A DNA stretch of 64,000 nt. Origin: Phoronis australis. Its lineage: Eukaryota; Animalia; Phoronida. Below are positions 2,798 to 49,600 of this stretch, piece by piece (within the stretch, counting starts at the first letter, position 1; every line of letters starts with the position of its first letter). The translations under genes were made by a program, and so were the position numbers. The DNA lies in contig NMRA01000013.1 of NCBI GenBank assembly GCA_002633005.1, positions 826,374 through 890,373 on the forward strand. The letters run 5' to 3'. The notes under the pieces are model-generated. The model was not told where the DNA came from and did no database searches. It saw only the letters and a list, made by a program, of their open reading frames with translations.

Positions 2798-2962
2798 GCT
2801 CATCTTCAGCCAAAGGATGACATCACTATTTTCTACCAAGCCTCGGAAGACCTCGCGCGCATCATTGAGACCTTTTATCAGTTCATCTATTCAACCATCA
2901 AGCAGCCAATGAAGAGTTTCCCTGTGGCGCATGGCGAGGTTGTCATTGCCGAGAAAGCGAAG
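2798..2962 (+). CDS. IARS1: IARS1 exon
   Basis: cag|AHLQPKDDITIFYQ...IYSTIKQPMKSFPV...EKAK|gttagt. Confidence 0.9.
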
Positions 2963-3944: not shown

Positions 3945-4184
3945 GTGAAGGAACATACTCTGGAAATGGTCGTCATCTATGGTCACGTCGCTGACGTACC
4001 CACGCATGCCAAGATCTCGGCCAGCCCCTCAACCAGCAACAATGTGGGGCCCATCTGTCGTTTCATCAACGTGGAGTTGTGCGGCGTCAACCCAGGAAGT
4101 GGCGTTCACGGCAAACAAGGAACAGTTCTGCTAGAGAATCCTAAGGGTGACTTCCCATTGTCGTTCACCCAGTTGTCCAATCAA
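3945..4184 (+). CDS. IARS1: IARS1 exon (C-terminal UNE-I appendage)
   Basis: tag|VKEHTLEM...GPICRFINVELC...GTVLLENPKGDFPLSFTQLSNQ|gtgagt; LLENPKGD motif of UNE-I. Confidence 0.92.
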
Positions 4185-4724
4185 GTGAGTTGTTCACCTT
4201 TTGACCCGAGAGTTTGACCTCTGAACCTTATCAACAGTCATAATGCTGGAGATGAATCAGAAACTACTGCATTCAGTAGTTCTGATGATGGTTGCAATAT
4301 TCAGTTGTAAAACTTGAGTAACGCATATAAAACTGAACTGTGCTATTTTGTCCAAGTTTACGGGAATCTGACGTGTCTGAAAGGCAGAATGCACAAACTA
4401 GGATAATTGTACTGCAGGAGTTTATCGGAGTTGAGGGCATTTAACTTGGGTACATTGTTTTTGTGTTTGCTGCGCTATTGCAAACGATTAAAATTTTCAA
4501 GGGTTGTTGAGATCATGATGGAGGAGCATTTGTTAACGTACCCATCGTCAGAAACACAAGTTTTCCATGCAGTTGCATCGCTTGAAGGTTTAATGCATTT
4601 TAATTTCTTATTTGAATTCTCAACTTTAATGAGTGTATTTCTGTAAGTGGCTGATACTGGCATTGGTGTCTTGTCATAAATTGTGTTCATGCACAGTACT
4701 TTAATTTTGTCTACCTCGTTTCAG

Positions 4725-4859
4725 GTTGACGGGATATTTGGACTGCATGGGAAAAAGTTTCATTACTACTTATCAAAAGATAAGAAAGGTGAGGTTACAG
4801 AAAGTACATGTAACCTCTTTGATCTCCATGGAAAGACGTTGTACGTGCACGCAAAGTAA
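4725..4859 (+). CDS. IARS1: IARS1 last coding exon
   Basis: cag|VDGIFGLHGKKFHYYLSKDKKGEVTESTCNLFDLHGKTLYVHAK*; resembles human VFGLRSRKL..KTVYV. Confidence 0.88.
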   Translation, partial: VDGIFGLHGKKFHYYLSKDKKGEVTESTCNLFDLHGKTLYVHAK

Positions 4860-5262
4860 TCTGATGCAACCTAGTGTGGTGACATGCCAAAATTTAAGCC
4901 CAGGTGAAGTTGTTCAGGCAGGTGAAGTTGTTCAGGCAGGTGTTTATTATGTGGAGAAGTGACGCGATGTGGATGCTGAAAGCTGAATTCAGAAAATAGC
5001 ATGTCAGAAGTGAAAATGACCTGTCGTTCACGATTGTGACATTGTCGAAATCCATGAAAAGATTTTGTCAGAATAGCAATCTGTTTGTGCTCATGACACG
5101 ACTCCATTAATAAGTTAGAAAGCGAGGCTGTCATTTGATGACGATTGAGAGCTCACTTGCATCTTCTTAATTCCTAGTTTATTAATCCAAATGTATGTTA
5201 CAAAATTGTATATTGTAAAATAACAGGCCTTGGATGGAATAATTATCAAGACCTATTATCAA

Positions 5263-13538: not shown

Positions 13539-13637
13539 TCAGTCCACGGTGGCCGTCAACTCTGACAGGGCTGGATAGAAAGCCAGAAGTAGGGCAAACA
13601 TCAGCGCCACCAATGGGACCATGGAGCAGATGGTTAT
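13539..13637 (-). CDS. SLMAP: SLMAP last coding exon, tail-anchor TM helix
   Basis: ttcag|[32 protein letters not shown]. Confidence 0.88.
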   Translation of the reverse strand: MTICSMVPLVALMFALLLAFYPALSELTATVD

Positions 13638-16600: not shown

Positions 16601-19600
16601 CGACTCACACACTTGTGCAGCACATACAAAACAAAGCTTATACACCCAAAAAGCATTGTTCAATGACTACCATCCCCTCACAAACAAGTGAGTAAGCAGG
16701 GAAGAGTCTATAAGTTGGGTTTGTGAGTGGACTTCATTTCGTGAGCCAAGTATTATGAGTGCCGGCACTAGCTTGAGTCAGTGAACTCAGTTTATAGGTC
16801 TATCAGCCGAGTTCATAGTTAAGGAACCATTTTCACTAGTGCATGAGCTGTGTTGTTTGGGTAGTCTGGATCAGACAACATTCAATTTTTATTAAGTAAA
16901 TCGGGGATCACAAATATTTAAAATAATTTCTCTTCACATTTTTAGTTGCGCAAAACAGTAAATAGCAAAAACCACAAATAACAAAAATCGCAACAAAATT
17001 AGCATCAAAAACAACAGAACAAGCTGGAAAAGAAAGACAATTTTTGTCATTTAACTCCATTCCAATAGGAGGCTTACAGTCAGTCTTTAATAGTTTATTG
17101 CGAGTCCACTCGTGGGCACAGACCTCCTGTGAGAGAATGCCTGCAAGAAACAGATACTTTACACTGTTAAGATACAAAAAGAAATAGATACTTTGCAATG
17201 TTAAGATATATACAGTAATATCAGACATTTTGCAATGTTAAGCACATAAAGAAATATCAGATACTTTACAATGTTAATACTTTGCATAGAGACAAGGACT
17301 TCAATGTAATAACAGAAATATATAAATGCCAGCAACTGACAACGACAATGGAATATGTAAAACATCTGAATGAACAAAGTAGTACAGATAAGATATAATT
17401 TCTCCGACAATGATAAATTAACATTATGCACAGGTTAAATATAACACCATCCAATAACCATTTAACGTATCTATAACAAAATATTACTTTAAACACAAGC
17501 CAACAAAATCCTGAAGCAAGTAATAATAATAAAAACCAACAGCACATGACACATTACGCTCAATTTCATCCAACTTATTGTTGAGGTTTCCACAGTGACA
17601 TCGCTCATCCTCGAGCTCAGCCGTTACCGAAACGAGCTGTTCTTTTGTTTGTTCGATACAACTGCTCTTTTGTTGAATTTCTTTGAGTGCTTGATCCAGT
17701 TCCAACTGTACATTATGGAGGGCAGCTGAAATGCCAATGGAAAATGGAAAAAAGTCAAGACATCTTTAATTCCCATGAAAGTAATTCCTTAAGACCAACA
17801 ACAACACTAACTTCTAATTCTGAGATAACAGTGAATTATTTCTTGAAGGCAATCATGTAGAATCATAGCAATTAGCGTCCCATTTTATAAAAGGTCATAG
17901 ATAAGATCTTATCCTACATTTTTTCCAACACAAAGTTTATGAAGATAATCGGTGAGTGACAACATGGTTTATGTTAGACTTTACCTTTGTTCTAATTTTG
18001 TTGTAGTTCAAAGAGCATAGTGAGATAGTATTCTTGTTCCAGCTTAACACAAATGATGCATTGATACACTACAACAATACACCAGAGAGTGAACAGTTTG
18101 TTTGCCCCTAAATATGATTGAACACCAATGTCTATCCAAACACTTACACTCCTGGTGGATAGACAAGAAACAAACCAGGTGTGAATTGGCATGCAGTGTA
18201 TCTCTTAAAAGTTGGCGAATGCTTGTTTTCTTTTTAGGGCTGTTCCAGCAAAATCTGTATGGGAGGGGGGGGAAGGCACTTTTATTTCGTACCCACCGCC
18301 CATATTTTTCATTTATTTCTCCAACCCATGACCCATAATTTTTTAATTATTTTTAATAGGTTAAAATATAAAATCCAACACTTGCAAACAAATTGCCTCC
18401 AGGAGGACCTGTTGAGAACTTAAATGATTGACAGACAAGAACTAGTTGTCTTGTCCAATATTGTCAAAAACTAAAGTAGCCTGTGAGCAATACTTTTGGC
18501 AGCCACCAGGTGTCTCTGTTCACCATGTGTCTAAAATTTCAATGAACATTTTTTCAATTATAAGGATCTATGAATCTCAAACTGTCTCCACGAACTCTTT
18601 TATACTTCTATCTCAAGTGAATATTGGAACTTGTTTAGCTTACTCCTCATACTTTTTATTTAAAAATCATCAATTTTCTTATATGTGTTAAAACCAGTTT
18701 TGTGTTGCATAACTTCAATTCAATAGGACTGCAGACAAACAGTTGACTCAAATCAAGTTGCCCATGACTTGTTTAATGGCTTAGTGAACATATAGCACTC
18801 TGTTCACTGGCAATATGGGCTCTTTTTTTATTGGGATCAACATTAACAGGTCAAAAAATACCATCTATTTTTAATGCATCACTTCTTACAGGAACGACCA
18901 CCCATAATTTGAGTTTTTTTCTGAAGACCACCACCCATGAATTTTTATTTCTGCTGCCGTCCCCCCCCTCCCACACGGATTTTACTGGAACAGCCCTTAC
19001 ACTTTTTCATTGGCTTTGGTTTGGAATTGAAACTTGACAAGACAGAAGAGAGCACCGTTTCCATGTAAAACATACACAAAATTCAGTTTAATTGGAATTT
19101 TATCTGTGTCATATTCGCCAAACTCGGGTCCAACAACCTAAATAAATTTCACAACTCCCTCCTGCATTGCTCAGTACGTTCAATAAGCAATCTGCTGACA
19201 TTGGGTTAAGTACTGTACATTGTGTCTGTGCCAGCTTGGCTAGGGTCGACTGCAGCTCCATCTTTCTTTCCTCCAGAGAGTTCTCAGTCAGTAATAAACT
19301 CTTAGCTGTGGTAGAGTGACTATCTCCTTCGGCCTCAAGATCCACTGCAAATAACACAACATAACCTGACAATACATTACAACACCGCCTAATTTTTACT
19401 GGAAACACTAACCAAGCAAAAGGGTACCCAACCATATTCAAGCTTGGTCAATGTTTTTCAATTATTTTATAACCTACCTCATTCAAGTTTGCACACTAAG
19501 CTCAAATGATCTTGCAAATTTTTCCAATTCGAACGGAGACGTCACTTCTCCAGCATAGAGGATATCACTCAGAAATGTCAGTGAACGATATGTTCAATCG

Positions 19601-22600
19601 GGAATAAGAAACTTATGATATCAATATTCAAGTTTTATACAACATACCGGTTTCAATCTTTACGTGCTACGAAAAAAAATGAGATATACAAAACATAAGA
19701 ATTAAACTTTGATATCTTTGAAGGAATTTCTTTAAGAATCAAAATTTCCTTCTAAACTGGTGAGTATTAAAATCCTAGAATATTAAAACCGTGCTTAATA
19801 TCAAGGCCAAAACTCGTTCTTACGTTCCAATTGGTTAATTTGTCTGAGCAAGGCATCGTTCTTACGTTCCAATTGGTTAATTTGTCTGAGCAAGGCATCG
19901 TTCTTACGTTCCAATTGGTTAATTTGTCTGAGCAAGGCATCGTTCTTACGTTCCAATTGGTTAATTTGTCTGAGCAAGGCATCGTTCTTACGTTCCAATT
20001 GGTTAATTTGTCTGAGCAAGGCATCGTTCTTACGTTCCAATTGGTTAATTTGTCTGAGCAAGGCATCGTTCTTACGTTCCAATTGGTTAATTTGTCTGAG
20101 CAAGGCATCGTTCTTACGTTCCAATTGGTTAATTTGTCTGAGCAAGGCATCGTTCTTACGTTCCAATTGGTTAATTTGTCTGAGCAAGGCATCGTTCTTA
20201 CGTTCCAATTGGTTAATTTGTCTGAGCAAGGCATCGTTCTTACGTTCCAATTGGTTAATTTGTCTGAGCAAGGCATCGTTCTTACGTTCCAATTGGTTAA
20301 TTTGTCTGAGCAAGGCATCGTTCTTACGTTCCAATTGGTTAATTTGTCTGAGCAAGGCATCGTTCTTACGTTCCAATTGGTTAATTTGTCTGAGNGTCTC
20401 ATTCACTGCTGCTGATTCTGCTCTAGCGTTGGACAGACACTCTTTAGTTTCACTATGAGCAGACTTCTCAACTTCCAGTCGTTCTGCAGTAAGAGAACAA
20501 ACACGATCACTACTAATGGCGTCAGGTCAAATGATCACTGACAACCACGGTTGTTATATGCAAAAAACTGAAAGGCAAACATGACCAAAACCAGAGGCTG
20601 CACAATGACAACAAAATAGCATTTGACCATCATGACACCTTATTTTGCAACAGCAAAAATGACTGAAAATTACTATTATGATGCCAAAACTCTAATTACC
20701 GAAAGGCTTAAGCCAACCTATAAACTTTCCAGTTAATTTCCCATAATTCTCGGTCATGAGGGAGGCCACTTTAGTTATGAATTCGACTTTCGCCTAGCAG
20801 TCATGACTGGGAATTCCAAGTAATCTTGTCTTTCAACTTTAAGCATACAATGTACAATAAACCATTTGTTTGATCTCCTAATGGACTCGACAGTTTTCCA
20901 ATTTCCAGACTTCCTACTTATTAACCAAAAGTTCAAGAAAAATTATTACTGTTCTGGAATGCCATCTATTGTATAATTAGCTATTGAGATACCTCTGATC
21001 TGTCACAAGCACACCTGGAGTTTGTTTATAAAAAGTGACTGAAGACTTCAATACTAATTTGTTCTTACACTCCCACTTCCCAGGTACAGATTACAGAATA
21101 AAGATATAGCAACGTAATTATTAGTACCATCAGTCTAGAAATAATGTGTAGAAATCATCTTAGTAACTAGTCATTATGAATATACTCTACGAGACTACAT
21201 TAAGAGAGATTCTATTATTTTTCAGAAATAGTTGTGTGGAGCGTAAGATCAAATTTCTTACTCAAGTCTCAAGTCACCTTTCATAGAACAGATCATAGAA
21301 CAGCAGAAGGAATGGAAACTGTAGTCCAGATTACATTCACTTGTTTATCATTTGTGACTGTTAAAGTTTCATGTACCGCAATTTCACAAAAACACCATTA
21401 AAAACACTGCCACTAACTATGAAAAATCCCAGACACAATTTTAAAGCATTTTTATCAAAGTTTTGATACAGAAAACTTGGTGAATGCTGTTGTAAGGACT
21501 TGACAGTGGCTAGAAACTTAGATATTTCAAGTAAAAGACATCATTTTAATTAGGGGTACACGTAACCTTAATGACATATGAGGGATTTCACTATCTAATG
21601 ATGCAACAGATGGCATTAGAGACCTGTCAGACAACTGTCAAACATCTTACTTTCAAACAGAGACAGTTTTGTAACCGCTATTTCATGATCCTCGGTGGCT
21701 CTCTCCACTTCCTTGGTAGACAACTCCAGTCGTTCCTTAGTCCTGGCATGGCAGGTTTGTTCTTCAGATAAAAGGGCTGAAAGTGGAACGCAAACTGAAC
21801 AGAGAAACTTGACTCAAGATTGAACAGAGTATAATCTAAGTTGATAGATAAATCTGAATTTTGATGACAGAAAATGGCGCAAACACTTAGCAGAAACAAA
21901 ATTTATTTGAAAATTCTGTTTGCACACATATTAAGTTGATGCCCTTGTCCCAGGAAATGCCATTTCACAGTATTTTTCTAGTTACAGAGGCTATCATTTT
22001 ACATTATCATATTCATTCAATCTAATTGTAAATCTAATCCAGCTAGAATGAACCAGTTTCAAGGGGTACTTCAAGAGAATTACATCCTCAAAATATACAG
22101 TAACTAAACTGTGGATGGTTAACTTCAATCACAACAACCAACAGACGTGCTAATCTCTATCAACCAGGGCTTGGAATGACCAATGGCGAAAAACGCAGAA
22201 ATTTTTACGGCCCGTAACATGCGTGCAACCAGCCTTGAAAAAGTCGGTGTGGACCTTTTGCCGACCAAAATCAAGGACTAAAAAAAAAGAAAAAGAAAAG
22301 AAAAAAAAACGGTACCACCTCCGGAAGCGTGCGTCTGCCTGTCTTAGCTCGTCTGCCACTCCCACCTCCAAACATTTTTTGGCTACAGAGTCGTAGTATT
22401 TGTCACCGCGGTTTACAGTCACACGAGCCGCCATGCCGCCATTGAGGAAATCCACCATGCTATCCCAGATGCCCCGGCAATGTTGACAATTTACGTTCCT
22501 CCGAAACATTAAGAGCAACTTCCGCTTTTCGAGGTGAAAGTCGGCGGCAACGCGGCGGTAAGAAAGACATTTGCCGCGGAAATTTTGTATCAAATCCGAT

Positions 22601-25600
22601 TTTTTTTACGCGGAAATATAATAAAATACGCGGAAAGAACACTTGAAAAAAGTGGAAATCCGCGTTTCCGCGGAAAATTCCAAGCCCTGATCAACCCATC
22701 CCAGACTTTGGTTCTACTTCGATTCGCTCCTGTCAACCACTTGAAGCCCATTCCTAACAGGAATTGGGTGCACATCGAGGATCATATCATGGCCACAAAG
22801 AGTCTCACAAAATGAGAAAAACATAAAGGGGAAATTGGTACATTACAAAAATATTTAAGTGAACAGACAGGGGGAGGGGGGGAACCGGGACTCCTTTGGA
22901 TCCGCACCTGGGGGTGGCCCCCATGATGAAAATTAATGATGAATGCATTTGTGACATTTAATTCTTTAAAGCAGGAACATTACCCAGAGACTAGCAAATG
23001 ATATATGAACATAAATGGACTAATTAACACACAACCCCCCAAAACATTTAACTGACACCAATTAAAAAGATTAGCCACAGATGGGACTTAAAAATAGATA
23101 AGTTTTCCACCCCAGTCATTGACTGCATTCCATACATTGGGTAGCCATGACAATGCAAATCTGCCAAGTTCAAACTGTGCGGTGTTTACCTTTGATGAAC
23201 AACTCTCAAACTCCTTACCTTGAGCGGTAGCCAGATTAGTCATGGCCGCCACCAGTTCATCATTCAAGTCGTCAACAACAGCAGAGACATTCTTCAGTTG
23301 GATCTGAGTGTCACAGTGACTTGATGTCTCCTCTTCCAACAGAGCTGTTGATACAAACAGCCACAAGTTCAGTCAATAGGGGTACACTAACATTGAGAAA
23401 TCTAGTCTATTACACAATGGTAATGGTGATTATTTTGGGCATTTACTTACCTGCAGTTTTCCTTCAAAAATCAATATTCTGGTATAGCTGTGGACACGTT
23501 CAGCAGCAGTCATTTCACTAGTGCATGCTAGCTAGACAGGTCATGTGATCTTGTATCGCTTTCGTAAGATTTTGTGAGATCTCGCCTAACTCAATTCATA
23601 AGATACTAGACTTACTAATTAAAAGAATTATACAGCTGCGATATCTTCACACTTCTCAAATGCTTTTCAATTTGTTTCCAAGACATCAAACAGCAGCTAA
23701 AGTAGTGCTTATGCAGGACACACACTAGAGAGATTTGCTCAGCAATCCAATTCCCTAAATCCGTAACTGAGGTGTGCACAGAGTACTCCCTCGAAGTGTT
23801 GAGGAGAATAACCAATGCGCCAATACCAAATATAGGTTCACAGGCCCAACACGTGGAAAATTTATGTATATCTGCCCATGAGCCTACTTTTGGAGTATTA
23901 ATTATCATTTAACAAGGTTTGCTGGGCTTCCCAAACTGAACGGCATAATAGGAAAGTAATAGACAAGTCTACTCTGTTGCACTATTTCATAAGATCAGTA
24001 CTATGTACCTGAAAACAAATGGTTCAGTCCAACACCCCAATTTCACTAATAAGCGAGGAAGGCACATACACAAAAAATTGCAGAATCCGACAGTTGTCCT
24101 AAAGCAGAATTTTGACAAACCCACTTACTTTCCGAGTCAGACAGTTGAATGTTCAAATTATCCAATTCAGCTTTTACTCTTTCATATTCCGCTCTGACAC
24201 AGCTTAACTGGAGCTGCGAGTTGTTGTTGGCAGTTCTTTCATCTTGCAACAAAGCTGAAACAACCACAGACAAAGCTGGCAGTCAAAGACTCAACATGCA
24301 AACTTTAATCATGGGTAAAAAAGATTATCAAACACAGTGATTTTCCAAACAATTGTTGGAATATCACATTTTTAATTATAGGTAAATTCACTGCTGGTGA
24401 AAGGCAGAGACTGGAATGCTGTCTAAGGTGTTAATACGACTTCAGCATCTAGTCAGGTGTAGATGTACAAACATGCTACATTTAAACGGGCACTTGACTA
24501 TTGAGTATTTTAACGTATATTAGTGAGAAGTAGCAAAAAATCTGACAGGAACTTTTGTATTGAAAAAGTTCAAGAAAAAGGCCCAGAATGGCATTTCAAA
24601 TTATGAATGCAGTAAGCATGCAAGATACGGACAAACTGCAAATAAAAACACATAAAAGTGACAAAATTGGTAAAGGTATAAAACATTTTAAAAACACCAT
24701 ATATTTCAGGCCCAAAACCCTCTACAGTGGTGGGTAAAACCACTGTGGAAGGGATGGAGCCTAAAACGTATGGTGTTTTTTAAAGGGTTTTAATTTATAC
24801 CATTATGTAGCAGATTTATTGTATGTGCGTGTTTTTATTCTCATTTCGTCTGAAATTTGTGTATAATCTCAGTGTACTATGATTGCCAAGCAAACTATTC
24901 ACTGTAATAAACATATTTCCAAAATATGTCAACGAACAAAACTTGAAGAGTTTTAAAGGTAAACAATAATTGAAACACAAAGTTATCCAAAACCATTACT
25001 TTCCAACTCCAGAATTCTTTTCCTGGTCATGTCTAGTTGGGCTCTCACATCGTAAAGCCAAGCTATTAGAATACAAAAATCACGGCTTGTAACACATTGA
25101 TACCATTACAGATGTCTATGTTTCTCATTGTATCATTATGATACAGGCAGGGAGACTTTTGCTTTACAGTTGGCTTTTGCCCAAATCATTACCAGGACGG
25201 CAAACAAAAACAAGAAAGTAGGTTCAAATTTGAACAAAAAACAAAGTGTTGTTTGATAATGAAGATTCCCGAAAATCACACAAACTGTGTTGTTGTTTTT
25301 TTCAAAAAATCAATGATGCCCAAAGACAAAAAACACCCCGATTCTGAAAGAGAGGAGCTCATATCAACATAGTATGAATCAGATTTCCTGATATACCCTA
25401 CCAAATATTTTTCATTTAGCCTTAATAAACGCCCACCTTCAACTTAAAAGCCCACATGGAATTTTCAACAGGTTACACACATTCTATTGTACTCAGCTTC
25501 GTGCCCACCACCAAATTTTCGTGTTCTCCAATTTACGTGCCCAGGGCTTTTCAACGGACTAGTTTGGTAAACAAGCCAAACAAAACTAGACTCGTAAGTT

Positions 25601-28600
25601 TCTTTGTCACGACAGCATACTCATTAACATTCAGTTGATAATAACAAACAATCTGGGATGGAACAGAAGGGCCGGCTTGCCAGCCAAATGACTTAACTCT
25701 GAAACAGTTTTCACTCATAAATGCTCTGAATGCTTTGCATGACAACAAAATGAATTTGTGTGAAGGTGCAAAAAATTGCAAAACCAACTTTGTAGGAGCA
25801 AATGGACTACTTTTGTGTTTTCAAACTGTTCAACTGATGAAAATACAGTCATAAGATACAAATAGTAGTTTCTTATCACACCTTAGCTAAATATTGAAGT
25901 GAAAACTGTCACCTAATTTCCATTAATTTAGCTTTGTAAAATTTCCTTCTTACGTCAATACGTCGATGAAGCCGAACAAATTTCGACAAAATTAATAAAC
26001 TTTTTGTTATTTTTGTTTGAAAACAACCACACTAGCTCTTCAATTTCCACTTGTCTAAAAAGCATACTCACTCTCCATTTCCTTTAGGTTGTTGACAGCC
26101 AGGTCATGAGCGGTTTCTTCCACCTTGAGTTTGTCTTCAAATAGCACACCAATAAACAAGTGGTCAAGTCCCAAATGCATCGCCCGCTTTAGTATGTAAC
26201 ATTCAGAACAAAACAAAACAAAAAACAAAACAAGACGTTTTGCAAGATAAGATGACGCTGAAAGGAAACAATCGTTTGAAACTCTGAAATTATTAAAAGC
26301 AGTAACTTTGTGAATTAACAAAACTGAAAACAACAGGAAGTCTTTGCAAAATTGCATGTACATATACAAGAAGGGATTGAGTTGTGGCATCGTAAAGTCA
26401 ACCAAACAACACACAAGGTCCCCTGATGGTTATATTTCTGTAGACATTCATTCATTTACTTTCACCAGTAGATTTTCATCAATTCAGAGAAGTTCAATGT
26501 TGTTCAACTGCGGCGGCCATTTTGATGGTGCCCACCAGACATTTGAAAATTATTTTGAAAATTCCATAACTTATCAGTTAAAACAGCATCAAACGGAAAT
26601 AACTTTCAACTAGATTGGTTTGAGGGCAACTTCGTTTCAAGAAGTTTTTAACTGAAAAGAAGTGCCTTTAAGATAATATACTTAATATGTGACAACATGT
26701 TCAGTACTTCACAGAAAAAACAGGAAATTCCTCCATGTTCATACAATTTTGCTAAAACCCCGGATAACAAAATGTTAAAACAATATGATTCCATTTGAAG
26801 AAAACATGTGGTTACAATAAATGTACCTGTTTGTGTAACGTCAGAAAAAACTTTCATTTGCTGCAGCATGCTGCGATATATTGAGGTGTATTCAATACAA
26901 CTTGTGATGGCAAACAGCAGCATGCAAAAACAACATTATTCAATCTGCTTCCATAGTTTAATACACTTCTCAAAAGCAAAATAAAACCAATCAAACGATG
27001 TGAAATTCATTGACATGAATTTGTATAAAGTATGAAGAAGAAATCAAGTTGACGTTTTCTTCAAATGGAAACAAACATTACGGAAACTGGAAGAAGCGTC
27101 CTACTTTCAGCCTCGTACATCCTCTTGACCGCGTCATCCAAAGAGACCTGCATGTCTTCCAGCTGTTCTGAAAGTTCTGAAAAACCCATGTTGAGATTGC
27201 CAGAGCAAAGGATAACAAAAATGCATCGGGATGCCAACTACACAGGCTGCGCATAATGAGGGAATTTGCAGAGGTCAAAGGGCACAGAATCTCACCTTGG
27301 TTCTTGGCCACCTGATGTTCCATTTCTTTCCGAGCACTCGACAGTTCTTCGGACTTTTTCGTTTCTGTATTTTTGAGTTGTGTCTGGATATTGCCGAGTT
27401 CAACTGAAAAACAAAAACCTTTAATATCAAAACTGCAATCAAATGTAAGTTTAAGCTAGTTTATGTAAACTGTAAAATACACCAATAAGAAAGTGCAGGC
27501 AATCAATACATAAAATTAAGATAGATGGCAGCACTTCAGAATATGCAAAAGAGGGACAAATGAAAAAAAAATCGCATCAGATACTTAATACAAGAAAAGA
27601 AGTACTCTTCACGGAGTGAACAATTCTGATTTAAAAATTTGTGAACAGCCACGAACAGAGATTTCAAAACAAGCTAAAGTTGTCAGTTCTATATGGATAC
27701 TACAATCATTTACTCAGTGAGAAAGAACGAGTCAGTTGAAGATATAACGTCGAAAACATCCCAAACACAAACTGTGTTCAAATAGAATACAAGAAACAGC
27801 AAATGTTTAATGTGAGCGTATACAGCTGTACATTGTGACAGGTTCTAATAAGCAATTAAAGTTACAACACAAACCTTGCAGTTTACTATTCTCATTCTGA
27901 GCCTGGTCTAGCAAATCTTCAGTAATGGACATTTGAGCTTTAAATAGACAACATGCAGATATCATGCATCAGGAACAACAGCAACAATGACAACGACGAC
28001 AACAACCTGACAACATGGTCAAAAGGCATATTAACAACATCCAATTAAAACTACAAACATCCAAGTCAAAAAGGATGACGTAATAACCTGAACATTCATA
28101 CAGTCAAAATCATATTAAATTACGGGTTCAACTACAAAAGAATTGCATAATATAATGCATCACTAATACAAGACAGGGTAAAAACCTACAACAGTCAGGG
28201 CAAAATTATATCCAAGAACTTTTCAGTTACAAGTTTTCAGAAGAATTTAAATGGAGAAGTCTAAAAAATCCCAAATCACAAAACACTAAAGAGCTCTTAA
28301 TTGATCTGGGAAGATAACCATATCACCACAGTTCTGTCTAGCCTGCCATCAACAAACTTGACTATAATTAGACCTGTGCTTTTTGAATTTTCTTCCTGTT
28401 GTACCTTGCATGAAGTGCAAATAAGTGAAAAGCTCAATGTTACAAGAAAACAACAAGAATTTGTAAGAAACGAAAATGTTATGAACCCACGATATAACAC
28501 TAAAAAGGAGTTGAGCAACTGCCTTCTGTAAAAACATAGCAATGTAAAATTGGTCTCAATTTGTTCACAATTCCACTTAGAAGTGATTTCTGAGATTGGT

Positions 28601-37600: not shown

Positions 37601-40600
37601 AACAGACTCAAGTATTGTAAAAATGGTTACTAGGTGGCACAGGATAAGTCAAATCTAACTGAAAACATGAAGGCACCGTTGTCTCTTTAATAGATACATA
37701 CTTAACAAATTTCCTGAAAATCCATTAATTAACTTTGAAAATGCAGAGGCAAACATAAAAAATCAAATAGCCACTAGGGAGCACAGTAGTCGGATCCGTC
37801 TGAAAGTGGTCGCTTTCTGCTGTCATGTCTGTACAAACACAATTCTGCAAATTTCACAAAGATTCTGCAAAGGTGAACGGAGATGAAGCAGCGGACGCCC
37901 GACAACGCACAACAGAGATGACAGCAATATGCGTCCATAAGTATACTTGGGCACATAAAAAGAAGTTCCCTCATCCTGTACCTCACTTCATTTATCATCC
38001 AATGATGCATGTGGCGAATAAGCAAATAAGAGGGGCAAACATCAGTGAGAAAGAGAGTAAGAAAGCAAAAATCAAATCTTTCGTGAATTTAGAGTGCAGT
38101 TTACTTTGGATACATCTACCTACACCACCAGCATTAATAGTAACTAAAACATTACAAACCTTGTATCTCCTGAGTTTCATCTTTACTTTTTTGAGCTAGC
38201 TGTCGCGCTTCTTCTAACTCAGCTATTGGAGAAAGCAGACAACACCGATCACTGTACGTCAGTTCAGTCTATTATACGAAAGAAACTTACAGTCGCTAAC
38301 ATCGAAAATCAAAACAATCGATACACATCAGAAATGGGTGAAATTTGGCCTATACTCTGTTAATTTTAACATGTACACTAAAAGCCAAGAAATATTCAGA
38401 CAAAATTATCCTGAAGTCCCCATCATGACGGCTAAGCAGAAGTCAACTTCATGGTGAGAGTAGTCTCCCCTGATGACCATCAGAGTAGTCTCCCCTGATG
38501 ACCAAGAATGAAGGGGAATTAACAGAAAAGTTAGCAAGATGGCCGAGCACCCGAATAGTTATTACAAGCCATTTTTACTGTTACAAGAATTAGCCGTCAT
38601 GATGGAAAATGGCATTTTGTCTGATTATATTTGTCTTGTACTGTACATGAAATGAGATGATTTGGCATAATTCATTTAATCTTTACACAATTATTGCCGA
38701 TACAAAATAATTTACAACAAACGTAACAGCTTTCAGAAGGATGCGGTGAATTGGCGAGGTTGAATTCAAGAAAAATAATTCAACTGAAGACAGAATAGAA
38801 GCAGTATTGTTAAATAAATGACAATGAATGTCACAAAGAATTTGTCCAATCAACAAGACCTACAGTTAGTTTTTAAGAAACTGTCAAATATCTCATCATT
38901 GCGTCAGAGTGAAAACAGCCAGCCATGTCTGGCGATTTGGAATTGAAAAGCAAAAGGTTATATCATGATTGACAAACAGCGCACCTTTTACCGTTTCCAG
39001 GGTGGTGAGTGCCCTCTTGTGAGTATCTTTTTCCTCGTCTAATTGTTCTACAAACGACATTTAGAGAAAACTGAATTTGCACAACAATAATACAGGAAGA
39101 GTACTGACAGAAATTAGTAGGAAGAGGTAAAGAAAAATAAGAGAAGCAGGCACCAAGATCATTTGCATAAGGCTGCAAAATAACCATTTTCTGCAATTTG
39201 GATTGTTGAAATGGACCACTGTAACAAAACACTTTGACGTAACCATTAATTAAAATACAAATTGCTGGTAACTTCGCAGAGATTACCATTTACCTCAGTA
39301 GTGATGCATGCAACATCCTGCACAAAATGGCCACCACCTATTTCTGCACTTCGAAAGCACAAAGCCCAACATAAACGAAGTTCAACAGCAAGTTGATCAT
39401 TGTGCCTGTTCAAAGGAAATGAATGTAGACAGGAGATGCGGTCCTTTTGGAATGTTAATGTCACTTTTTATTGTTGCAGGCAGGGGAACACCATTTAAAG
39501 TACAGCTAACAATAAAAATGCTTGCTTTCTTCTTCAATGTTTCAATTTATTATTCTTCAAGCTATGACATAAAGGAAGAGATTTATGAGCTTTAGAAGAG
39601 CTGACAAAACAAAACTGCTTCTGACCAATCTCACAAAGCCAGCCCTGTGTATGACACCACATTTAGGCACCATAAGCAACAGAGTTGGCTGCAGGTTAGT
39701 GAATAAGCAGGTTCTCAGTCCGAACAGCAGATGGATTTACTGGTAAAAGAACCCAGGATTCTTTTGGCTTTAACAAATTACTCACACTTGGCATTTGTTT
39801 CGATGAACGCAACTTTAAATGAAAATTCGCACAACTAACACAGAGATTTAGTCCAGAACTATGCCAATCTAGAGGTTGCATGAAATTTATCAAACGATCA
39901 TAGCAAAGAGACAAACGTGAACAGTTTTAGACTGTTCTGACTTTCGACAGGAGAAACTCACTTAATATATTTTCTACTTCTTCTTGCTTTTTCAGTGATT
40001 CCTCTTGTTCTTGTGCGAGACGTTCTGAACGAACAAGACAATATATATTGTAATCACAAAAACTCACACGTTAGTCTGACATCAACAATGAAAGTCAATC
40101 GGCATTTACGCAATGACAAGATAAACAGCTACAAGTTTCTCAACTTGACATTTGGCAAAGGTGTTCTGTAAAGCTTTGAGAATGAAAAATATAATCCCAT
40201 ACCATATATTTACTCTTCTTTTGACTATAACACACAGTCTAGGCTTTAACCTTTAAGTGTTGGCGCACATTTAACTATTTTTAGTAATAATGAGGGTATG
40301 AAAAAACTGGTGCTTACAAACAATGAAAGAACAAATGACGGGGGTTAATAGAGCAAATTCGGGACAATCATGCAATCACAGAAATATGGCAGAAAACAAT
40401 CAAAAGACTTGGACAATGTGACGAAGGAGAAAAACGAATAACATTTAACTTTCTGAACATCGTACCACAAATCAAATTATTTCCAGAACTGCAGGGGTTT
40501 GATTCAGTCTGGGACAAACTGAAATTACCTGTTAACTGTAATAATTGACTGTTAACCTCCTCGTTTGATGATTCCGCTTTACTAAGTTGTTCTGGAAAAT

Positions 40601-43600
40601 CAAATTAATAAACCATTAATAGTATTATAACTGCACGTGATCTGGCACGTTGTACCAAACATGCACAGGCCGCTCTGGTGGGTCCATTGAATAGATCACC
40701 AAGAACTATTCTTATACTTTATTAATATATAGTTAAAACCGAGCTGAGGAGCTGCAGACCTGACTCAAGGGTCTACCAGTGTGGCCCAGTAGGATACAAA
40801 CCCACAACCAAACTATAGCCAGGGGAATTGAGTTTAAAATCAGTCAACCGTAATTAGAACAATTGACTATTGTCGCCCTCAGTCCATGACATGGCGTTGC
40901 TTACTTAAGTTATTCTGGAAAACCAATTTAACAAACTTCATTAGCACGACTTGGTAACCAACTTCCACTACATAGTCCATCCATCATTCTCTATCTAATT
41001 CTTATGCCTTATGCGTATTAACTTTAATCCACAAATCTGCAATATAAGAAAATATCTCCACATCTTGTCAACACAACCACACATGCAGAATTGCATTAAT
41101 TTTCGTTTGACCCAACTATGGCGGTGGAATAAGAAAGAGACGTACCCTTTAACTCCGCCACCTGATCAGCGTGCCTCCTGGCTTCCTTCTGCGCCAAAGC
41201 TAGCTGTGTCTGGAGTCTGTCCGTCTGTTCGTCAGCTGTCGCAACGCGAGACTGAGCATCGACTAGATCTCCTGCGATGAAAGTAAATTTGACAGTTGGT
41301 CAACGAAGAAAGGTTCATTTCCGTTTACTATCTGAGTGAGTGAGTGAGAACAGAAAGTTGGGGGGTTATTCAGAGGAAGGAAACGGGTCCCTGGTCACAA
41401 CCTGAATGCACACAGTTTTCTAATACATGCGTTATTTCAACAGCACAACAGAGTGTAACTCTAGTTTCTCGTAACAATAAGGTTACTGATACAACTACAA
41501 CTGATCTGGCATGTTCGAAAGGTGGGACAGACTATAAGCAAAAAAATTGATGTAATTACTACTCTACATCCAATAGATTATGGGCAAGAATACTAGTCTC
41601 CAAAGTCAAATGGTTCTTTACTTTGGTATTTTTCAACTTCTTCGTCTTTCCTTCTGGCTGTGTCCTCTGCTTCTCGTAATAAACCTGCAAAACATCACCA
41701 TGGTTACGGAAACCTTAGACATGAAATCAGCACGAAAAGGCATCAATGAATCATTCAATGCACAGAACCATGATGGGACATAGCTAAGATCGCGTAGGAA
41801 CTTGTCGACAAGTCTCACCATTTAGCCAAATATCTAGAACACTATAGAGTTTAACTCGGTAAAAGTACAAAGTCATACTCTCTGACAGTAAAAAAGCCTG
41901 TTGAACTTGATTTTTAACTTTAAACCAATCAGCCATTAATTGGGACACACATCTCTGGGTTTGGCGAAATTTAAAGAAACAAAAAAACACAAGATACATC
42001 CGTTACAAAAGAATGTTGTTAACAACATGACCAAACTTCACTTGGATCAAATGTTCAAGATGAAATCTCAAAAATGCCGTTACAATTTTCTAAAAACATC
42101 ATTTCATTTTCATTTTAAGCAATATTTATTCATGAGAACCATACCAGTGGTACACTTTGATGGACCCTCACGCAAATAAGGAACATATTTTAAAACAATT
42201 CTGAATAGAATTTTAGAGAATAGCTTAGCATCTGAAACTTTCACACGAATCGGATAAACCATTTCCAAGGTATGATATTCCAAAGTCAGCCAAATTTGAA
42301 CATTTTTAAGGTCTTACACAAACTTAACTTATCAAACATCCTAAATCTATTTACCTGACAATTTCAGTTTGTGTCTATCATTAATCACACACGAGAATAT
42401 TCCATTGTTAAAAAACATAAGCGTTTCGAATTGTGGGTATGTATTGATGAAGCAGATTTTGTTCTGTCAAATCAAAAATGGTGAAAAATGCATATTATCC
42501 TTCAGTTTCAGAGTTCTCAAGCAAAATCACCATCCCAAATTCAGGAATTTTTATGATAATTTCATTCATAGGTATTTTGAACTGCAAGTCATGTCACTAA
42601 GAACTAACAATCCTGCATCAAAATCGCAACACATCTATCACGAATCTCACCGTTCAGTCTATCGATCTCCAGCTGACATCGTGCAACTTCCTGTTGATTG
42701 TCTGCGCCAGGCTCTCTCTGCTGCAGTGTCTCCACCTGTTGTTTATATGATTTTAACTCGCTCTCCAATGCTGCGATTTCCACTGCAACACAACAGGACA
42801 CACGTACCACACACTGGCGAACGTAACTGAAGGGACAGTATCGAGTTTAGGGATGAGGAACGCATTTTAAGGATGACTGTTGGATGGGACAAACTTCTTG
42901 AAGTTATTAGCTTTGGCCAGAGCAATAAAACAACAAAACCTATAGTATTTTTGTGATTTCTACTACAAATCACCAATTCACGCACACATTTGCTGACATC
43001 AAGGTGGGTGACTTCACCACTTCAATATGCTCAAAATACTGCGCCATTTATCAAGAGTGGCCAGCTCCACCAACAGAGTCATACTGAGACCTCGGGGGTT
43101 GCAAGTTTGATTCCATGCTCAGGTCAATTTTAAAACATCATTTTGTTTGCCTAATAATGTCCCTATAAATGTGCATATAAATACGCCATAATGAACCAAC
43201 CCAGAGTAACACAGTGACACTTGTTTGTGGCAATGTTCGACCAGGATAGGATGGCGTACACTAGATTTTGTAATACCATATTCGTCCTAATAAGCGCCTA
43301 GGGCGCTTACAGAATTTTGTTTCAGGATGGGGAGCGCTTAATATGGCTTAAAGTGGTCGAAACCCGGTCTCCGAAACGGGTGAAATCTTAAGCTAGGATT
43401 TGTCAAATTTACGCTCTGTAACCTATGACAGACTTACTACAAAATTATGGTCTATTGCTATCAAACTACGAAGTTATATTATGATCATTTTTCAGAAAAT
43501 TGAGCTAAATCCCAGGAAAAAAACTCGTCAATTGAGGCGTCGCTACCACGCGATCGTCAATAGGGCAACTTGAATTCTTGAATAAAAATATAGTTTCGAC

Positions 43601-46600
43601 TCAACAAATTACCTGAAGTCCTCTTTAAGTTTTCCAAATAGTGTCCCCAAGATTTTTAAGTTCCTGTGGAGTCAGTATTAACTGCATAGAAGTCCAAATC
43701 TGAGCTAGATCGTTGCCCGCAACACGAGAAAATTTCTGAATGAACACACGTTTTTGTCACGTGACGTTTGTTTTGAAGTTTGTCTGCGTGTGAGTGAGTG
43801 AGCGAGGGCGTGTGAGCTCATTTGCCAGGGTAAAGGCAGTGTAACGATCTGGGTGTTCATTGTAACTAAAGAAATTAACACATTCTAGCAGTAAATCAGA
43901 ACATTTTTTTCGGCACTTGTCGATATCATCTGCAAAAAACGTTTGAGAATTGTCTCGGTGAGTCGGCAGATGACTGGATGTGTGACAGTCCAATAACAGT
44001 TATTTTCCAGGAGATTTGGGGGGTGTAAGGGAGCGGACGTGCTGACTATCAGTGGGTTATTTTGACTTTAAAAACACCAATTATGATTAATTAAATAATC
44101 CGTTGAAAATAACGCACACGTTTTTATGGTATTAGAAATTTTCTGATATTAGTGCCAAAATTTATTTCTTGCCGATGCTATGCTACCCATATCTTGAATG
44201 GATAGTTCCCAATACTAATGTTTTCGATGACAGGTATGTAGCGCGCGCTTCCTCGCCACGTGCTTTTAACATCGATCAAGTTTTTATTAGACTTCGATTC
44301 GCAGTTTTCCTGTGTACAAAGTAATTTGGATTCCTGTTGAGAGAGAAGATACAATACAATCCCTTTGACAAGTACGCTGCGTCTGTTCTGAAAGGGACAC
44401 GTTCCTCGCAAGATCAGCAAAACGTGCGTTCGTCTTGAAGCGCGGCGGAAGTTCGAAGTTTATAGTCACGGCTAAATACCGACATAGCGGTGAGGCTCGT
44501 GGTCTACAAATTCCGCGCACAATGATTTTTTCAGGACTGTTGGATCTTATTGATAAATTGAAGATGTTACTGTAGAATTTTAAAACTGTAGGAAAGGCAT
44601 TTTTCGCATGCGGACGGCGTTCATGGACTGGGCGCTTATTTTAGATAAGTCTAAAAATGCGTGGGGGGCGCTTTGAGGGCATGGGTGCTTATTAGGGCGA
44701 ATACGGTATTTCTGTTATCGGTCAGTGTACCAGATAACTCAGTGGACAAGCGTCTGCAATGATTACAGCAGGTTTCGAGTTCGTGCCCCAATCAGTAAAA
44801 AAGCCTTCTCAGACTTGAGTTTATTACAAATGGCGTGACCTGGCCAACAGGGGGCGCATAAGAGACCATCAATAATTAGAAGAAAAGAAAAAATTGTATG
44901 ATTTACCAAATCGTATTTCGTTGATAAACGGTACAGCTATGGGGAACAAATAACGTTTACTACCACACATAACAACACTCACGTCGTAACTGTGATGATA
45001 AATCATTACTTTGACCGCTCTGTTTTTGGGATTCTTCTAACTGAACTGTAGAAAAATAAAGATGGATACAAACATAAAATAAAAACACAAACTTGAGCTC
45101 CACAAAACTCATTTCTTGAGTACAGAAACACATTAGCTGTCAGTACAAAACCAAACCATGCTGTTATGAACAGAGCAATGACAATTGGATTCTAATACAC
45201 AAATTAGAAACAAAAGTTAAAACAACATTGATTACTACTAGGGGATTTAAATGAACATCCATGCCAACCACAGTGATTAAAAACAACGCAACAAACATGG
45301 TTGGCAATATAAAAGTCAAATTTTGAAAAAACAGCACCATAACTGACCACCACCATAACTGACCACCAGCATAACACAAACGGAGTTTTGAATTTTGTCC
45401 CTTAATTTTCTGAGTTTTGAATTTTTATTCGTCTTAATTTTCCCCAAGAAGCCTTCTATCAACGAATACAGTCACCATTAACTTAGGATTGGACAACAGA
45501 TCACATGACCACTTACGCTTCAGGTCGGACATAGTGTTCTCCATAGCCTGGTTCAGACGCACATCCGACTGACGGAGGTTCTCTAGAGTTAGCAACAACA
45601 AACAGAACGTGAAATCACAAAACGTAACTGAACTGGAAACAAAACGGCATGCCAAAAATACAGCAACATTTTGCATAATGGTCAGATTGAGGGTTGACAC
45701 AAGTCGGACAAATGTATAAGAAAACTAAGTTACGGGGACTTTTCCGTAAAGGAAAGAAGTTAGGAGGTACTTTAGGTCATGCACTGATTATGTAACATTT
45801 CGATAATGGTTCAGGGTCAAGAGCATGGGAATCCAAACAATTGATTTCATCCACAGGATGTTGAGAATTGGCCATCTGATATGAAGTTGACACAAAACGT
45901 GTAATGTTCTAAGGTGAACATGGTACAAACTTTTTATCAATCGTTTTGATTAGACTTCTGAAGAGATTGCGATCAGAAATCTACCTATCACACAACCCTA
46001 CTTCTACTTGAATATTCTCGGATCAACGATATATCAAATATGTTTTGGAATGTTTGTAATAAGAAATTCTACAAATGAATAAGTTGAGCAATGACATGAT
46101 AAAAATCTCAAGTTTTTGGAAACTTTTAAAAAATAAAACTTTAAAAGGAATACCTGGAGATTATGCTTAGATGTGTGAATTCTGTTTAAAAGCAATGTAA
46201 CAGAAATGATAAAGCCACAAAGTCAACAGGCGCAACCAATGAGTCACATTAAGACAGTGATCATGTTTAAAACTACCTTCTAATGCCGCCACCCTGGCGA
46301 TGTACATTACAACTTCCATCTGAGCTTGCTCCAGTTGACCTACAGGGGGCAGTGAGAAAAAAGCGGTATGAAGTAGTTGCATTCTGACATTTATAATAAC
46401 ATGAAACTGAGCAAAAGCAGTACCAGGCTCAAGTGTTTGTGCGCTGCAAATGAATTCGCAAGGGCCACAGCAATGTGACTTAGCAACTTGATGTGAGCTC
46501 TTTGCAGATTCCTCAAAAGACTTTCCACAGGAAGACATTAGCTAAGCACAATTTAATCAATATCCTGAGACAAACACGAGTGCCACAATCCATGTTTTGG

Positions 46601-49600
46601 AGACACCCATATGTACCACAATCCATGTTTTAGAGACACCTACTCTGTAGCTGCTCCACCTTTTCCCTGCTCTCCTTCAATCGTGATTCCGACTCTTCAA
46701 GCTTGGCTTTGTATTGCTCTATTTGGTCGCGAGTCTCTTGTAGTTTGTCTGAAAATACAACACGACACAACATACACTCATGTAGTGTTGAAAGTCTGAG
46801 AAGCATTGCCGAATTTGTAGCGTTCGAACAAATGAAATAAAACATTGTGATTGGGTCTTAATTCATTAAGAAGCTGTCCGATTCTAGACGATCTCACTCA
46901 CTTGCAATGAATGGTGCCTGTGCCTTCTTAGGGGTATTTTTAATTTTTTGGGTCGCTACTCCTTTTTGGCAATGCATCAAGCAGCCAAAACTAAGGTTTT
47001 GCAGAAATGATTCTGATCTTGAGGGAAATTTTTGAGTCATTGGAGGGAATTTTTGCAACTGAGGGGATAATTTTGGATGATTTTGTAATTATATTTCATA
47101 GGGAATGGGGACGATAATCAAGGCAGCGAGGACGCTGTATTGGCATACACTTCACCACCAGTGGCTAAACTTTTTTTTAATCATATTATGTGTTTAATAC
47201 CTCCCAATGAAAAGAGGAAGGTTGGTTTCAAATTATGGCAGTCAAGTTACTCATTCCAACATTATATTCAAAAGTAACAACCATTCTAGACAACATATTT
47301 TGGCCACTAGACAACAAAATTCTGATAAATGTAATGGGTTGTTTGACTTCAAATACAAATAACATTTCAAAAAGAAATGCACTGCCCTTCACAGAAAAGG
47401 TGCGCTGGTTCTACCGAGAACAAAAAGCTTCATTAATCACTACAAAGAATCCATCATCTCAAAGACCAGGCATTGACCTAACATGAACTCTTGACCTCAA
47501 TACACAAATGACAGAATTATGCAGTGTACCTTTCAATTCCTCTTTTTCTATTATAGCATCAAAGTTATCGAGAGATTCAGTTTCCTCTCTATCACCTGTA
47601 AAAAAAGTCAAGGAAAGAATAATATCGCTATTTGCAGAGGTTCGTAACCGATCCAATTTCCAGATGCAGATAATTGACAAAATCAAAATTTTGTGAATAA
47701 CTATAATACAGACACAAGCCAGCTGAATTGAGATGAATGAGGCTATCTGCACACATGTTACACATAATGACGAATAGACACAAATGACAATGCTGAGTCT
47801 CAATTAGGGCGCTATGTAAAGGGGAATGCGGGAAAATGTGCTGTGGGCCCTCATTTGGTTACCCTTGTTAAAATGTGCCGTGGGCCCTCATGGGGTTACC
47901 CTTGTTAAAATGTGCTGTGGGCCCTCATCGGGTTACCCATGTTAAAATGTGCTGTGGGCCCTCATGGGGTTACCCTTGTTAAAATATGAAAATATAAAAA
48001 TTCTTTAATAGCATCTTTGAAGCAGCACCTTTATAATGCTCTTCAAAAACTTAAAGATAGCCTGTATCAGTGATTCCATACCTTTGAAGCAGCACCTTTA
48101 TAATGCTCTTCAAAAACTTAAAGATAGCCTGTATCAGTGATTCCATACCTTGATCATTCTCTGCCACGTCTTCAATGGTCTCCTTGGCGACCGATGACTC
48201 CGTCGGCGAAGATGACGACTCGCTATTGACCCGGTTCTTCAACTCCTCCATACGACTCCTCATCTGTGTCAGTTGTTGCCCTGCGAAGTCGTTATCTGCC
48301 TGCAATGCCTCGACGCGTGCCGACAACACGCCTTCCTCTTTAATCATCTCATTCAGTCGTTCTTGAATCTCCGCATTCTCTTGCGTAGTCTTCATGAGCT
48401 CCTCCTCATGTTTCTTTTCAGCGTCCTGGTGAAGACAAGTCACTCAATACAAGTGGCCCTCATTTTCCGCAATGAAAATGAATGGAATTTATGGTGTGTG
48501 ACTTTTTTCAAAGCAATGACATGTCAGTATCAGATCAAAAATTCCAACATTCTTTAGTTATTAATTACCAAAAACTAATTAAGAATCTAAGCTATTTAAT
48601 TCGACATAAGCTGGTTGCAAATCTATCGTGTTCCAGCAGACTTGTTCAAGTAATTGCTCATGACTCTGTGGTGCAGTGGTTAAAGTGCTGGACCAATTAT
48701 CTGTAGTTTCAAATCCTGCCACGGACAAAAAAATCACAACATGAGTGTACCACATATCCGTGCTCTTACTTCTAACAACGCGGGAACACCTGACGATGGC
48801 CGGAGAATAGACCAACCGAAACATCATGACAAGAGGTCGGTGTACATAGACCAAGAGATTTTAATAATAGTAACATCTAGGAACACTACATTCCCCCAAC
48901 TTACTGCCAGTGTCTGCTGCTTTCAATATCTAGGAACATTACATTCCCCCACTTACTGCCAGCGTCTGCTGCTCTTTCAACATCTAGGAACACTACATTC
49001 CCCCACTTTCTGTCAATGTCTGCTGCTCTCTCAGTACATAGGACCACTACATTCCCCCCACTTACTGCCAGCGTCTGCTGCTCTTTCAATATCTAGGAAC
49101 ACTACATTCCCCCACTTTCTGTCAGTGTCTGCTGTTCTCTTAGTACATAGGACCACTACATTTCGCCCAGTTACTGCCAGCGTCTGCTGCTCTTTCAATA
49201 TCGAGGAATACTATATCCCCCCCACTTACTGCCAGCGTCTGCTGCTCTTTCAGTATCTAGGAACACTACATTCCCCCACTTTCTGTCAATGTCTGCTGCT
49301 CTCTCAGTACATCGGACCACTACATTCCCCCCAGTTACTGCCAGTGTCTGCTGCTCTCAATATATAGGACCACCACATCCCCCACTTACAGCCAGTGTCT
49401 GTTGCAGAGTCTGAATCTCCTTCAACTGCTCGTCATGTTTCTCGGCCAATGTCTGAAGCTCCGCTTGCGTAGTTTCACACATGGTTTTCAGGTGGCTGCA
49501 CTCGTCTTCCGTGTTACTGAATGAGTTCTATAAAAATAATTTATGACACACACCTATTAATAATAAGAGGTTGCTTTAACACAACTTTCCTTTGGATAGA

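Follow-up and report, generated by a model that had tools for sequence, protein, structure and literature searches.

The window analyzed here, 64,000 nucleotides (nt) of the Phoronis australis contig NMRA01000013.1, carries on its minus strand, from position 62120 to position 13542, a gene that by its sequence belongs to the SLMAP family. SLMAP is a membrane-anchored protein that connects the STRIPAK phosphatase with the Hippo kinases. Eight upstream exons, 32 consecutive stalk exons, and four downstream exons join into a stop-free frame of 1,475 amino acids (aa). Each of the 32 stalk exons (47595-17078, minus strand) runs from phase 1 to phase 1, is bounded by AG and GT, and is stop-free in the curated set, and the block encodes 915 aa; an earlier note, made from the sequence alone, had described these 32 symmetric exons and put the block at about 910 aa and the protein at about 1,470 aa. 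The extended SLMAP stalk is real, expressed, partly skipped, and leads to a predicted protein much longer than any of 338 relatives.

RNA evidence came from four samples under one species label, the contigs X1, which were taken as RNA (spliced contigs are present), and the raw reads X2, X3, and X4. The exons of the gene are listed below; “scan” is a phase-free search for AG-GT exons, “joint” is a splice joint in RNA, and relatives are given by genus or by protein number.

61932..62120, minus: first coding exon, with the beginning of the FHA domain; 78% identity to Lingula SLMAP 1-63, Pfam FHA E 0.018, open frame.
52809..52956, minus: second FHA exon; Pfam FHA E 5.9e-8, 82% to Lingula.
52295-52361 and 51117-51201, minus: two short exons following the FHA domain; tblastn of Lingula SLMAP, open join.
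50436..50603, minus: first coiled coil (CC1), in mammals the SIKE1-binding region (PMC6323126).
50017-50157, 49390-49527, and 48149-48425, minus: three conserved coiled-coil exons; scan, Lingula match, open join; the third terminates in phase 1 in a Ser/Glu-rich linker.
47530..47595, minus: stalk exon 1, 66 nt, linker-like; scan, stranded RNA depth in its bin.
46644..46748, minus: stalk exon 2, 105 nt, ancestral; z 19 to Lingula, X1 contig piece.
46277..46339, minus: stalk exon 3, 63 nt, ancestral; z 16 to Lingula.
45517..45582, minus: stalk exon 4, 66 nt, ancestral; z 13; the 22-aa equivalent is optional, absent from some Lineus, Mercenaria, and oyster isoforms.
44983..45045, minus: stalk exon 5, 63 nt, ancestral; z 9.
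42651..42782, minus: stalk exon 6, 132 nt, with a Pro/Gly break and a register break; X1 contig piece.
41622..41684, minus: stalk exon 7, 63 nt; deduced from one X1 contig, in which 62 letters separate the pieces of exon 6 and exon 8, z 5.4 to P0005.
41146..41271, minus: stalk exon 8, 126 nt; joint to exon 9.
40529..40591, minus: stalk exon 9, 63 nt, ancestral; joints on both sides, z 7 to Lineus.
39962..40024, minus: stalk exon 10, 63 nt, equivalent optional in relatives; joints on both sides, relatives' profile p 0.0006.
38985..39047, minus: stalk exon 11, 63 nt, of E-x3-H-x6-L type, equivalent optional in Lineus; joints on both sides, profile p 0.0006.
38160..38222, minus: stalk exon 12, 63 nt, ancestral; joint to exon 11, z 5.8.
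36903..36986, minus: stalk exon 13, 84 nt, last of the ancestral stalk by position only; scan, no significant match to relatives.
36237..36299, minus: stalk exon 14, 63 nt, opening the extra block; joint to exon 15 in X2 and X3.
35300..35362, minus: stalk exon 15, 63 nt; joints on both sides.
34517..34591, minus: stalk exon 16, 75 nt; joined to exon 15, exon 17 (X2), and exon 19 (X1).
33750..33812, minus: stalk exon 17, 63 nt; absent from the X1 contig with the 16-to-19 joint, and X2 and X3 likely contain read-through of it.
32168..32230, minus: stalk exon 18, 63 nt; scan, skipped in X1.
30704..30820, minus: stalk exon 19, 117 nt; joined to exon 16 and to exon 21, with a depth of 10 in X2.
29720..29782, minus: stalk exon 20, 63 nt, cassette; both forms within the same run (X2, X3).
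27875..27937, minus: stalk exon 21, 63 nt; joints on both sides.
27296..27403, minus: stalk exon 22, 108 nt; joints on both sides.
27105..27176, minus: stalk exon 23, joined on both sides in RNA, by which it has 72 nt; with another AG, 9 nt further in, it would have 63 nt.
26072..26134, minus: stalk exon 24, 63 nt; joints on both sides.
25000..25062, minus: stalk exon 25, 63 nt; joint to exon 24.
24129..24254, minus: stalk exon 26, 126 nt; joint to exon 27.
23219..23344, minus: stalk exon 27, 126 nt; joints on both sides.
21651..21776, minus: stalk exon 28, 126 nt; joints on both sides.
20370..20483, minus: stalk exon 29, 114 nt as assembled, with an N at 20395; joint to exon 28.
19219..19344, minus: stalk exon 30, 126 nt (exons 30, 31, and 32 are known from sequence only).
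17558..17725, minus: stalk exon 31, 168 nt.
17078..17140, minus: stalk exon 32, 63 nt.
15993-16068, 15237-15396, and 14179-14313, minus: three conserved membrane-proximal coiled-coil exons; 47-72% identical to Lingula.
13542..13637, minus: tail-anchor exon; 57% identical to the Lingula tail, best 17-residue hydropathy 2.59.

Four sequence features meet in the predicted protein and identify it as SLMAP, in agreement with the name that had been given to the gene before: the FHA domain (Pfam PF00498), its docking residues, CC1, and the tail anchor. The kinase-docking residues of the SLMAP FHA domain are R32, S52, and R53 (PMC6323126), and R31, S51, and R52 are kept at the matching places in a comparison with the relative P0046. 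The CC1 exon is 71-84% identical to relatives (120 matches listed, most of them named SLMAP). A tree of 32 rows, from which exons 14-32 were left out, pairs the protein with Lingula at a Shimodaira-Hasegawa-like approximate likelihood ratio (SH-aLRT) support of 92, which is under the bar of 95.

The stalk exons have lengths of 63 nt (16 exons), 126 nt (five), 66 nt (two), and 72, 75, 84, 105, 108, 114, 117, 132, and 168 nt (one each). Most of these had been read correctly from the sequence, but exon 23, counted before as a seventeenth 63-nt exon, was joined by RNA at 27176 (4 reads, X2) and has 72 nt, so that 24 and not 25 of the 32 lengths are multiples of 21 nt. Compared to a chance of 1 in 7, this corresponds to a binomial p of 2e-14, with draws that are non-independent if the exons were duplicated. 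All exons being phase 1-to-1, any of them can be dropped in frame, as had been proposed. The GC content is 45% in the stalk exons versus 37% in the introns. The scan picked 27 of the 32 as phase 1-to-1 exons, among them exon 29 with an overrun into a repeat, missed exons 15 and 20, and picked exons 30-32 with another boundary. Two picks of another phase inside the block were dropped, 43750-43783, which sits in a repeat read on both strands, and 23451-23531, with a depth of 0 over most of its bin and bypassed by the joint of exons 26 and 27. A 21-nt AG-GT phase-1 segment at 29033-29053 would encode a Pro-Pro helix breaker; the depth in its X2/X3 bin is 0, and it is probably there by chance.

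At least one boundary was confirmed by an RNA joint for at least 20 of the 32 stalk exons (8-12, 14-17, and 19-29), and so were at least 15 of the 31 consecutive junctions; exons 1, 3, 4, 5, 13, and 18 had no joint among those listed. Exon 20 was skipped in 8 reads of X2 and 2 reads of X3 (19-to-21 joint) and included in 3 and 2 reads of these runs (20-to-21 joint), so both forms coexist. Exons 17 and 18 were skipped together in one X1 contig with a 16-to-19 joint, which had 0 reads in X2 and X3. The joints across the block rule out that it consists of pseudoexons or is skipped as a whole, and the skip joints rule out a fully constitutive block; these were the two outcomes named by the earlier note as contradicting its proposal. 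Splicing variation is visible in the RNA, but for three exons only. The very large combinatorial isoform space that had been proposed goes beyond what the RNA shows, with at least 11 consecutive joints and at least 2 skips among 17 joints for exons 14-29, at 5-15 reads per joint, a depth at which skipping at 10-20% would mostly escape notice. X4, with the same species label and from the same study as X2 and X3, had no reads on SLMAP exons over the mapped span (20240-48800, in two parts); tissue or label may differ, and this run was not used as evidence.

The longest of the 338 relatives has 1,073 aa, and 190 full-length relatives have a median of 863 aa and a range of 516-1,073 aa. Without exons 14-32, the protein from P. 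australis would have 900 aa, in line with these values. A direct match to relatives exists for exons 2-5, 9, and 12, and a match to profiles made solely from relatives for exons 10 and 11; exons 1, 6-8, and 13 were placed in the ancestral stalk mainly by position. Judged by these comparisons, about 13 of the 32 stalk exons correspond to the stalk of the relatives, and the novel part is a 19-exon extension of 574-575 aa composed of exons 14-32. Exon 31 as a query found 0 of 425 candidates at E 10, and region 465-570 of Lingula found 1 of 186 candidates, Lingula's own isoform, both being weak negatives for the extension in relatives. A representative search, with 1,073 aa as the longest protein among the best 150 of 304 matches, returned no relative with it, either.

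The modular design itself appears from the sequences to be old and widespread in the relatives. Between the equivalents of exon 9 and exon 12, there are 1, 22, 43, or 64 residues, which are zero to three units of 21 aa, in 91 of 91 relatives that possess both anchors (102 of the 338 proteins have the left anchor). Units of 21-22 aa are absent from some annotated isoforms of Lingula, Lineus, Owenia, oysters, and a chiton, and the Lineus isoforms display all four on/off combinations of two units; these isoforms are database gene models, taken as annotated. The novelty assigned to the layout by the earlier note was overstated to this extent, since about 13 exons match the stalk of relatives and optional 21- to 22-aa units are already present in annotated isoforms. 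No paper on a 21-aa modular exon layout in SLMAP was found in a literature search that scarcely covered subscription papers and supplements.

The heptad register was evaluated with a simple and crude scoring model of our own. Scored one by one, 24 of the 32 exons share one start register; in a joined-chain model, 27 of 31 exons start in the shared register, with 7 breaks over about 1,000 aa. Most skips would consequently keep the register, as had been predicted. Hydrophobic residues occupy 58% of the a/d positions, in the old and the new parts of the stalk alike. In the joined model, the register shifts at exons 17 and 20, which are among the three exons seen skipped. Exons 14-32 contain more Cys and His than the 340 aa preceding them, with 9 and 13 in 574 aa versus 2 and 2, and 9 of the His residues in this new block are at core positions; a metal or pH sensitivity of the block would be a guess. 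A coiled coil rises by 0.148 nm per residue. From exon 2, which is preceded by the linker, to the anchor, the stalk has a computed length of about 150 nm at this rise, 85 nm of which is new. The step of about 3 nm per 63-nt exon given in the earlier note agrees with about 1 nm per heptad (PMC5082667).

A transcribed block in the introns around exons 17 and 18 may indicate a second form of the protein:

32100..34250 (ends approximate), minus: transcribed intronic block, from stranded RNA depth around exons 17-18.

Over about 2 kb of intron, the depth on the strand of the gene was 4-11 in X2 and X3 and near 0 in X4, compared to 0-0.6 in other intron-only bins outside of repeats. The block may be a retained intron or an alternative last exon. 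A nested coding gene was ruled out, as there is no stop-free stretch of more than 94 codons on either strand. The depth in X3 was 0 at 32325 and 32394 versus 4 in X2, and the end of the block may differ between samples. Read-through of the exon 17 donor would terminate the protein at 852 aa with a 20-residue, moderately hydrophobic tail, and that of the exon 16 donor would do so at 862 aa. These data hint at a short form of about 850 aa, made by read-through after exon 17.

Tandem repeats adjoin several exon edges, one of them at exon 29:

19814..20394, minus: perfect 42-nt tandem array of 13.8 copies, covering the end of exon 29 and its donor.

The array is in frame, adds two heptads per copy, and offers 14 donors. 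An X1 contig of 72 nt is an exact match to it, which means that another sample has at least a short array. Its copy number, next to the N of the assembly, is doubtful, and exon 29 likely has a true length of 126 nt, if the N at 20395 hides 13 bases. A perfect 67-nt duplication at 48015-48151 lies over an SLMAP exon donor and creates a second, frame-shifting donor, a 109-nt array at 48872-49405 lies over another donor of an SLMAP exon, and more tandem repeats are adjacent to exon edges at 46567-46638, 17151-17277, and 15406-15524. RNA reads with numerous loose ends map to interspersed repeats at 22160-22690, 36500-36680, 38440-38650, and 43300-44700; these repeats are likely copies of mobile elements located in introns.

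The same phase, the same register, and the sizes of 63 and 126 nt argue for exon copying, and the 19 extra in-frame exons were likely gained by repeated copying of older three-heptad exons. One particular place is taken by His in 9 of 39 units, compared to none of the 78 equivalent heptad places (p 3e-5, for a place chosen after the data had been seen); exon 11 and 6 of the 15 units from relatives have His there, too, which suggests, from the sequences, one old family of copies.

To understand the meaning of the extension, these data can be combined into a reading to which we assign a probability of roughly 0.5: the gain of 19 exons would extend the coiled coil, by prediction, from about 65 nm to about 150 nm and make it a longer tether, for which splicing offers a small number of coarse settings. 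With a common heptad position at the start of the exons, copying or skipping one of them would keep the helix interface in step, and for this reason such changes would be tolerated and could accumulate. As a longer tether, the long form may hold the FHA/STRIPAK end further off the membrane. The N-terminal part is connected to the stalk by a non-helical linker, so that the stalk would define the greatest reach and not a fixed distance; a role as a ruler is hypothetical. Because FHA and CC1 both precede the stalk, its length would alter the distance to the membrane and not the geometry of kinase and phosphatase. Because the RNA shows three exons skipped, the reach is likely set by splicing at a few coarse levels and not in millions of combinations, and read-through after exon 17 would yield the second, short form of about 850 aa.

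Evaluation of this reading needs to consider several points that weigh against it. Just 18-19% of each of the raw runs X2-X4 was used, exons 30-32 are outside of the mapped span, and all numbers of joints, being GT-AG joints among those listed, are lower bounds. With 5-15 reads per joint, the other exons are for this reason graded as mostly included and not as constitutive. The tail made by read-through has a hydropathy of 1.86 versus 2.59 of the true anchor, 4 of the 32 possible read-through tails score at least 1.8, and the intronic block contains ATTAAA sites only and no AATAAA, so that the short anchored form is a candidate only. Concerning the copying of exons, 14 of 780 unit pairs were above the 99th percentile of a register-keeping null (7.8 expected) and none above the 99.9th, and 2 of 24 new units matched the exon 11 profile of the relatives at p<0.05. 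A recent exon duplication with clear similarity is unsupported, the unit pairs being near the null and the profile matches few.

Alternatively, many of the 32 exons may be regulated cassettes with which tissues set the FHA-to-membrane distance in 3-nm steps and tune the STRIPAK/Hippo output, which we regard as unlikely. Skipping of the three exons does differ between the runs, the 16-to-19 joint being confined to X1, relatives drop several equivalent units independently, and the transcript was found in three runs only, so most tissues are unsampled. However, the joints listed for exons 14-29 are mostly consecutive (11 versus 2 skips), FHA with its MST binding and CC1 with its SIKE1 binding are N-terminal to the stalk so that their spacing is unaffected by its length (PMC6323126), and described coiled-coil rulers are constant in length across species (PMC5082667), whereas the length of SLMAP varies widely.

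Neutral growth, in which register-safe exons were copied and kept as nearly harmless and skipping is tolerated splicing noise, is improbable to a similar degree. The divergence of the new exons to near-background similarity, the search without a relative carrying the extra block, and the 42-nt array and 67-nt donor duplication as signs of ongoing local copying at exon edges would all be expected from such a process. Against it, 19 of 19 new exons have kept open frames, splice sites, and a hydrophobic a/d stripe equal to that of the old stalk, most new exons tested by RNA are included, and optional 21-aa units recur across phyla.

A wider proposal, a length code in which tissues choose among the 19 new exons, the mid-stalk stop, and the 14 in-frame donors and so set the STRIPAK/Hippo platform at about 60 to more than 150 nm off the membrane, is distinctly unlikely; if it were true, the mid-stalk stop would give a short membrane-anchored form, each donor of the array would add two heptads, and signaling or organelle spacing would depend on the setting. 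Very unlikely is that the optional exons are docking patches that add partner-binding surface instead of spacers, for which the kinectin exons V2, recruiting the multi-synthetase complex, and V3/V4, overlapping the kinesin site (PMC12768868), the Cys and His of the new block, and the register shifts in exons 17 and 20 may be cited, but no partner is known, heptad-multiple units bear on length and register more than on docking, and the new exons tested had no Pfam match at the curated cut-off.

The preferred reading of a longer tether can be compared with known systems. The vertebrate STRIPAK subunit SLMAP (SLMAP3) and its lophotrochozoan orthologues share the FHA domain, the conserved first coiled coil, the long stalk, and the C-terminal tail anchor. 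Isoforms from vertebrates also drop in-frame blocks in the middle of the protein, mainly of 17, 20-22, and 41 aa, and lophotrochozoan isoforms drop units of 21-22 aa, whereas the splicing described in the cited papers concerns tail anchors and short FHA-less forms (PMC2712456, PMC9926302, PMC11484480). The gene described here differs from them by a product of 1,475 aa, compared to at most 1,073 aa, by 19 additional phase-1 exons, by its tail-anchor exon, of which one and not two was found, and by a possible mid-stalk 3' end.

In chicken BG genes, the coiled coil of the cytoplasmic tail is encoded by 27-37 exons of heptad size, whose first codon is split and whose number varies, and intron read-through shortens the tail (PMC5938342, PMC4046983). 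These genes likewise use symmetric split-codon exons in heptad multiples and a coiled coil of splice-varied length. BG proteins, of the butyrophilin family, differ by their Ig-V domain, a membrane segment N-terminal of the tail, 21-nt instead of 63- or 126-nt exons, and no FHA head; the protein studied here starts with FHA and ends in a tail anchor, outside of this family. Heptad-sized exons with splice-varied tail length are therefore already known, and new is the 19-exon extension of SLMAP. Kinectin (KTN1) is a membrane-anchored long coiled coil with the tissue-regulated in-frame exons V1-V5 (PMC12768868), but has an N-terminal anchor, five alternative exons, and a shown role in partner binding, not length. 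In ROCK, a long coiled coil keeps the signaling end at a distance from the membrane (PMC5082667, PMC4686654), its shortening impaired function, and conservation of length marks such spacers (PMC5082667). The length of SLMAP, in contrast, varies across species, from 516 to 1,073 aa in the 190 full-length relatives to 1,475 aa here.

Other observations concern the flanks. Beyond the tail-anchor exon, a 63-nt exon-like segment with a strong donor is situated at 11882-11944; joined to the last coiled-coil exon, it leads to an immediate stop and would yield an anchor-less protein, and the oyster isoform P0056 likewise has no anchor. Positions 1-4860 of the window (plus strand) contain 3' exons of a neighboring gene, one of which matches Pfam DUF5915 with E 2.7e-6; a tentative label for this gene is isoleucyl-tRNA synthetase.

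The long stalk of SLMAP has no assigned job in the parts of the literature covered. The 21-aa modular exons appear to be an old and apparently undescribed feature of invertebrate SLMAP, and the gene from P. australis is a clean example of coiled-coil growth in units of whole exons. With more than twice the usual length and pieces that should be removable in register, its stalk would be a natural set of spacers for testing the effects of membrane distance.

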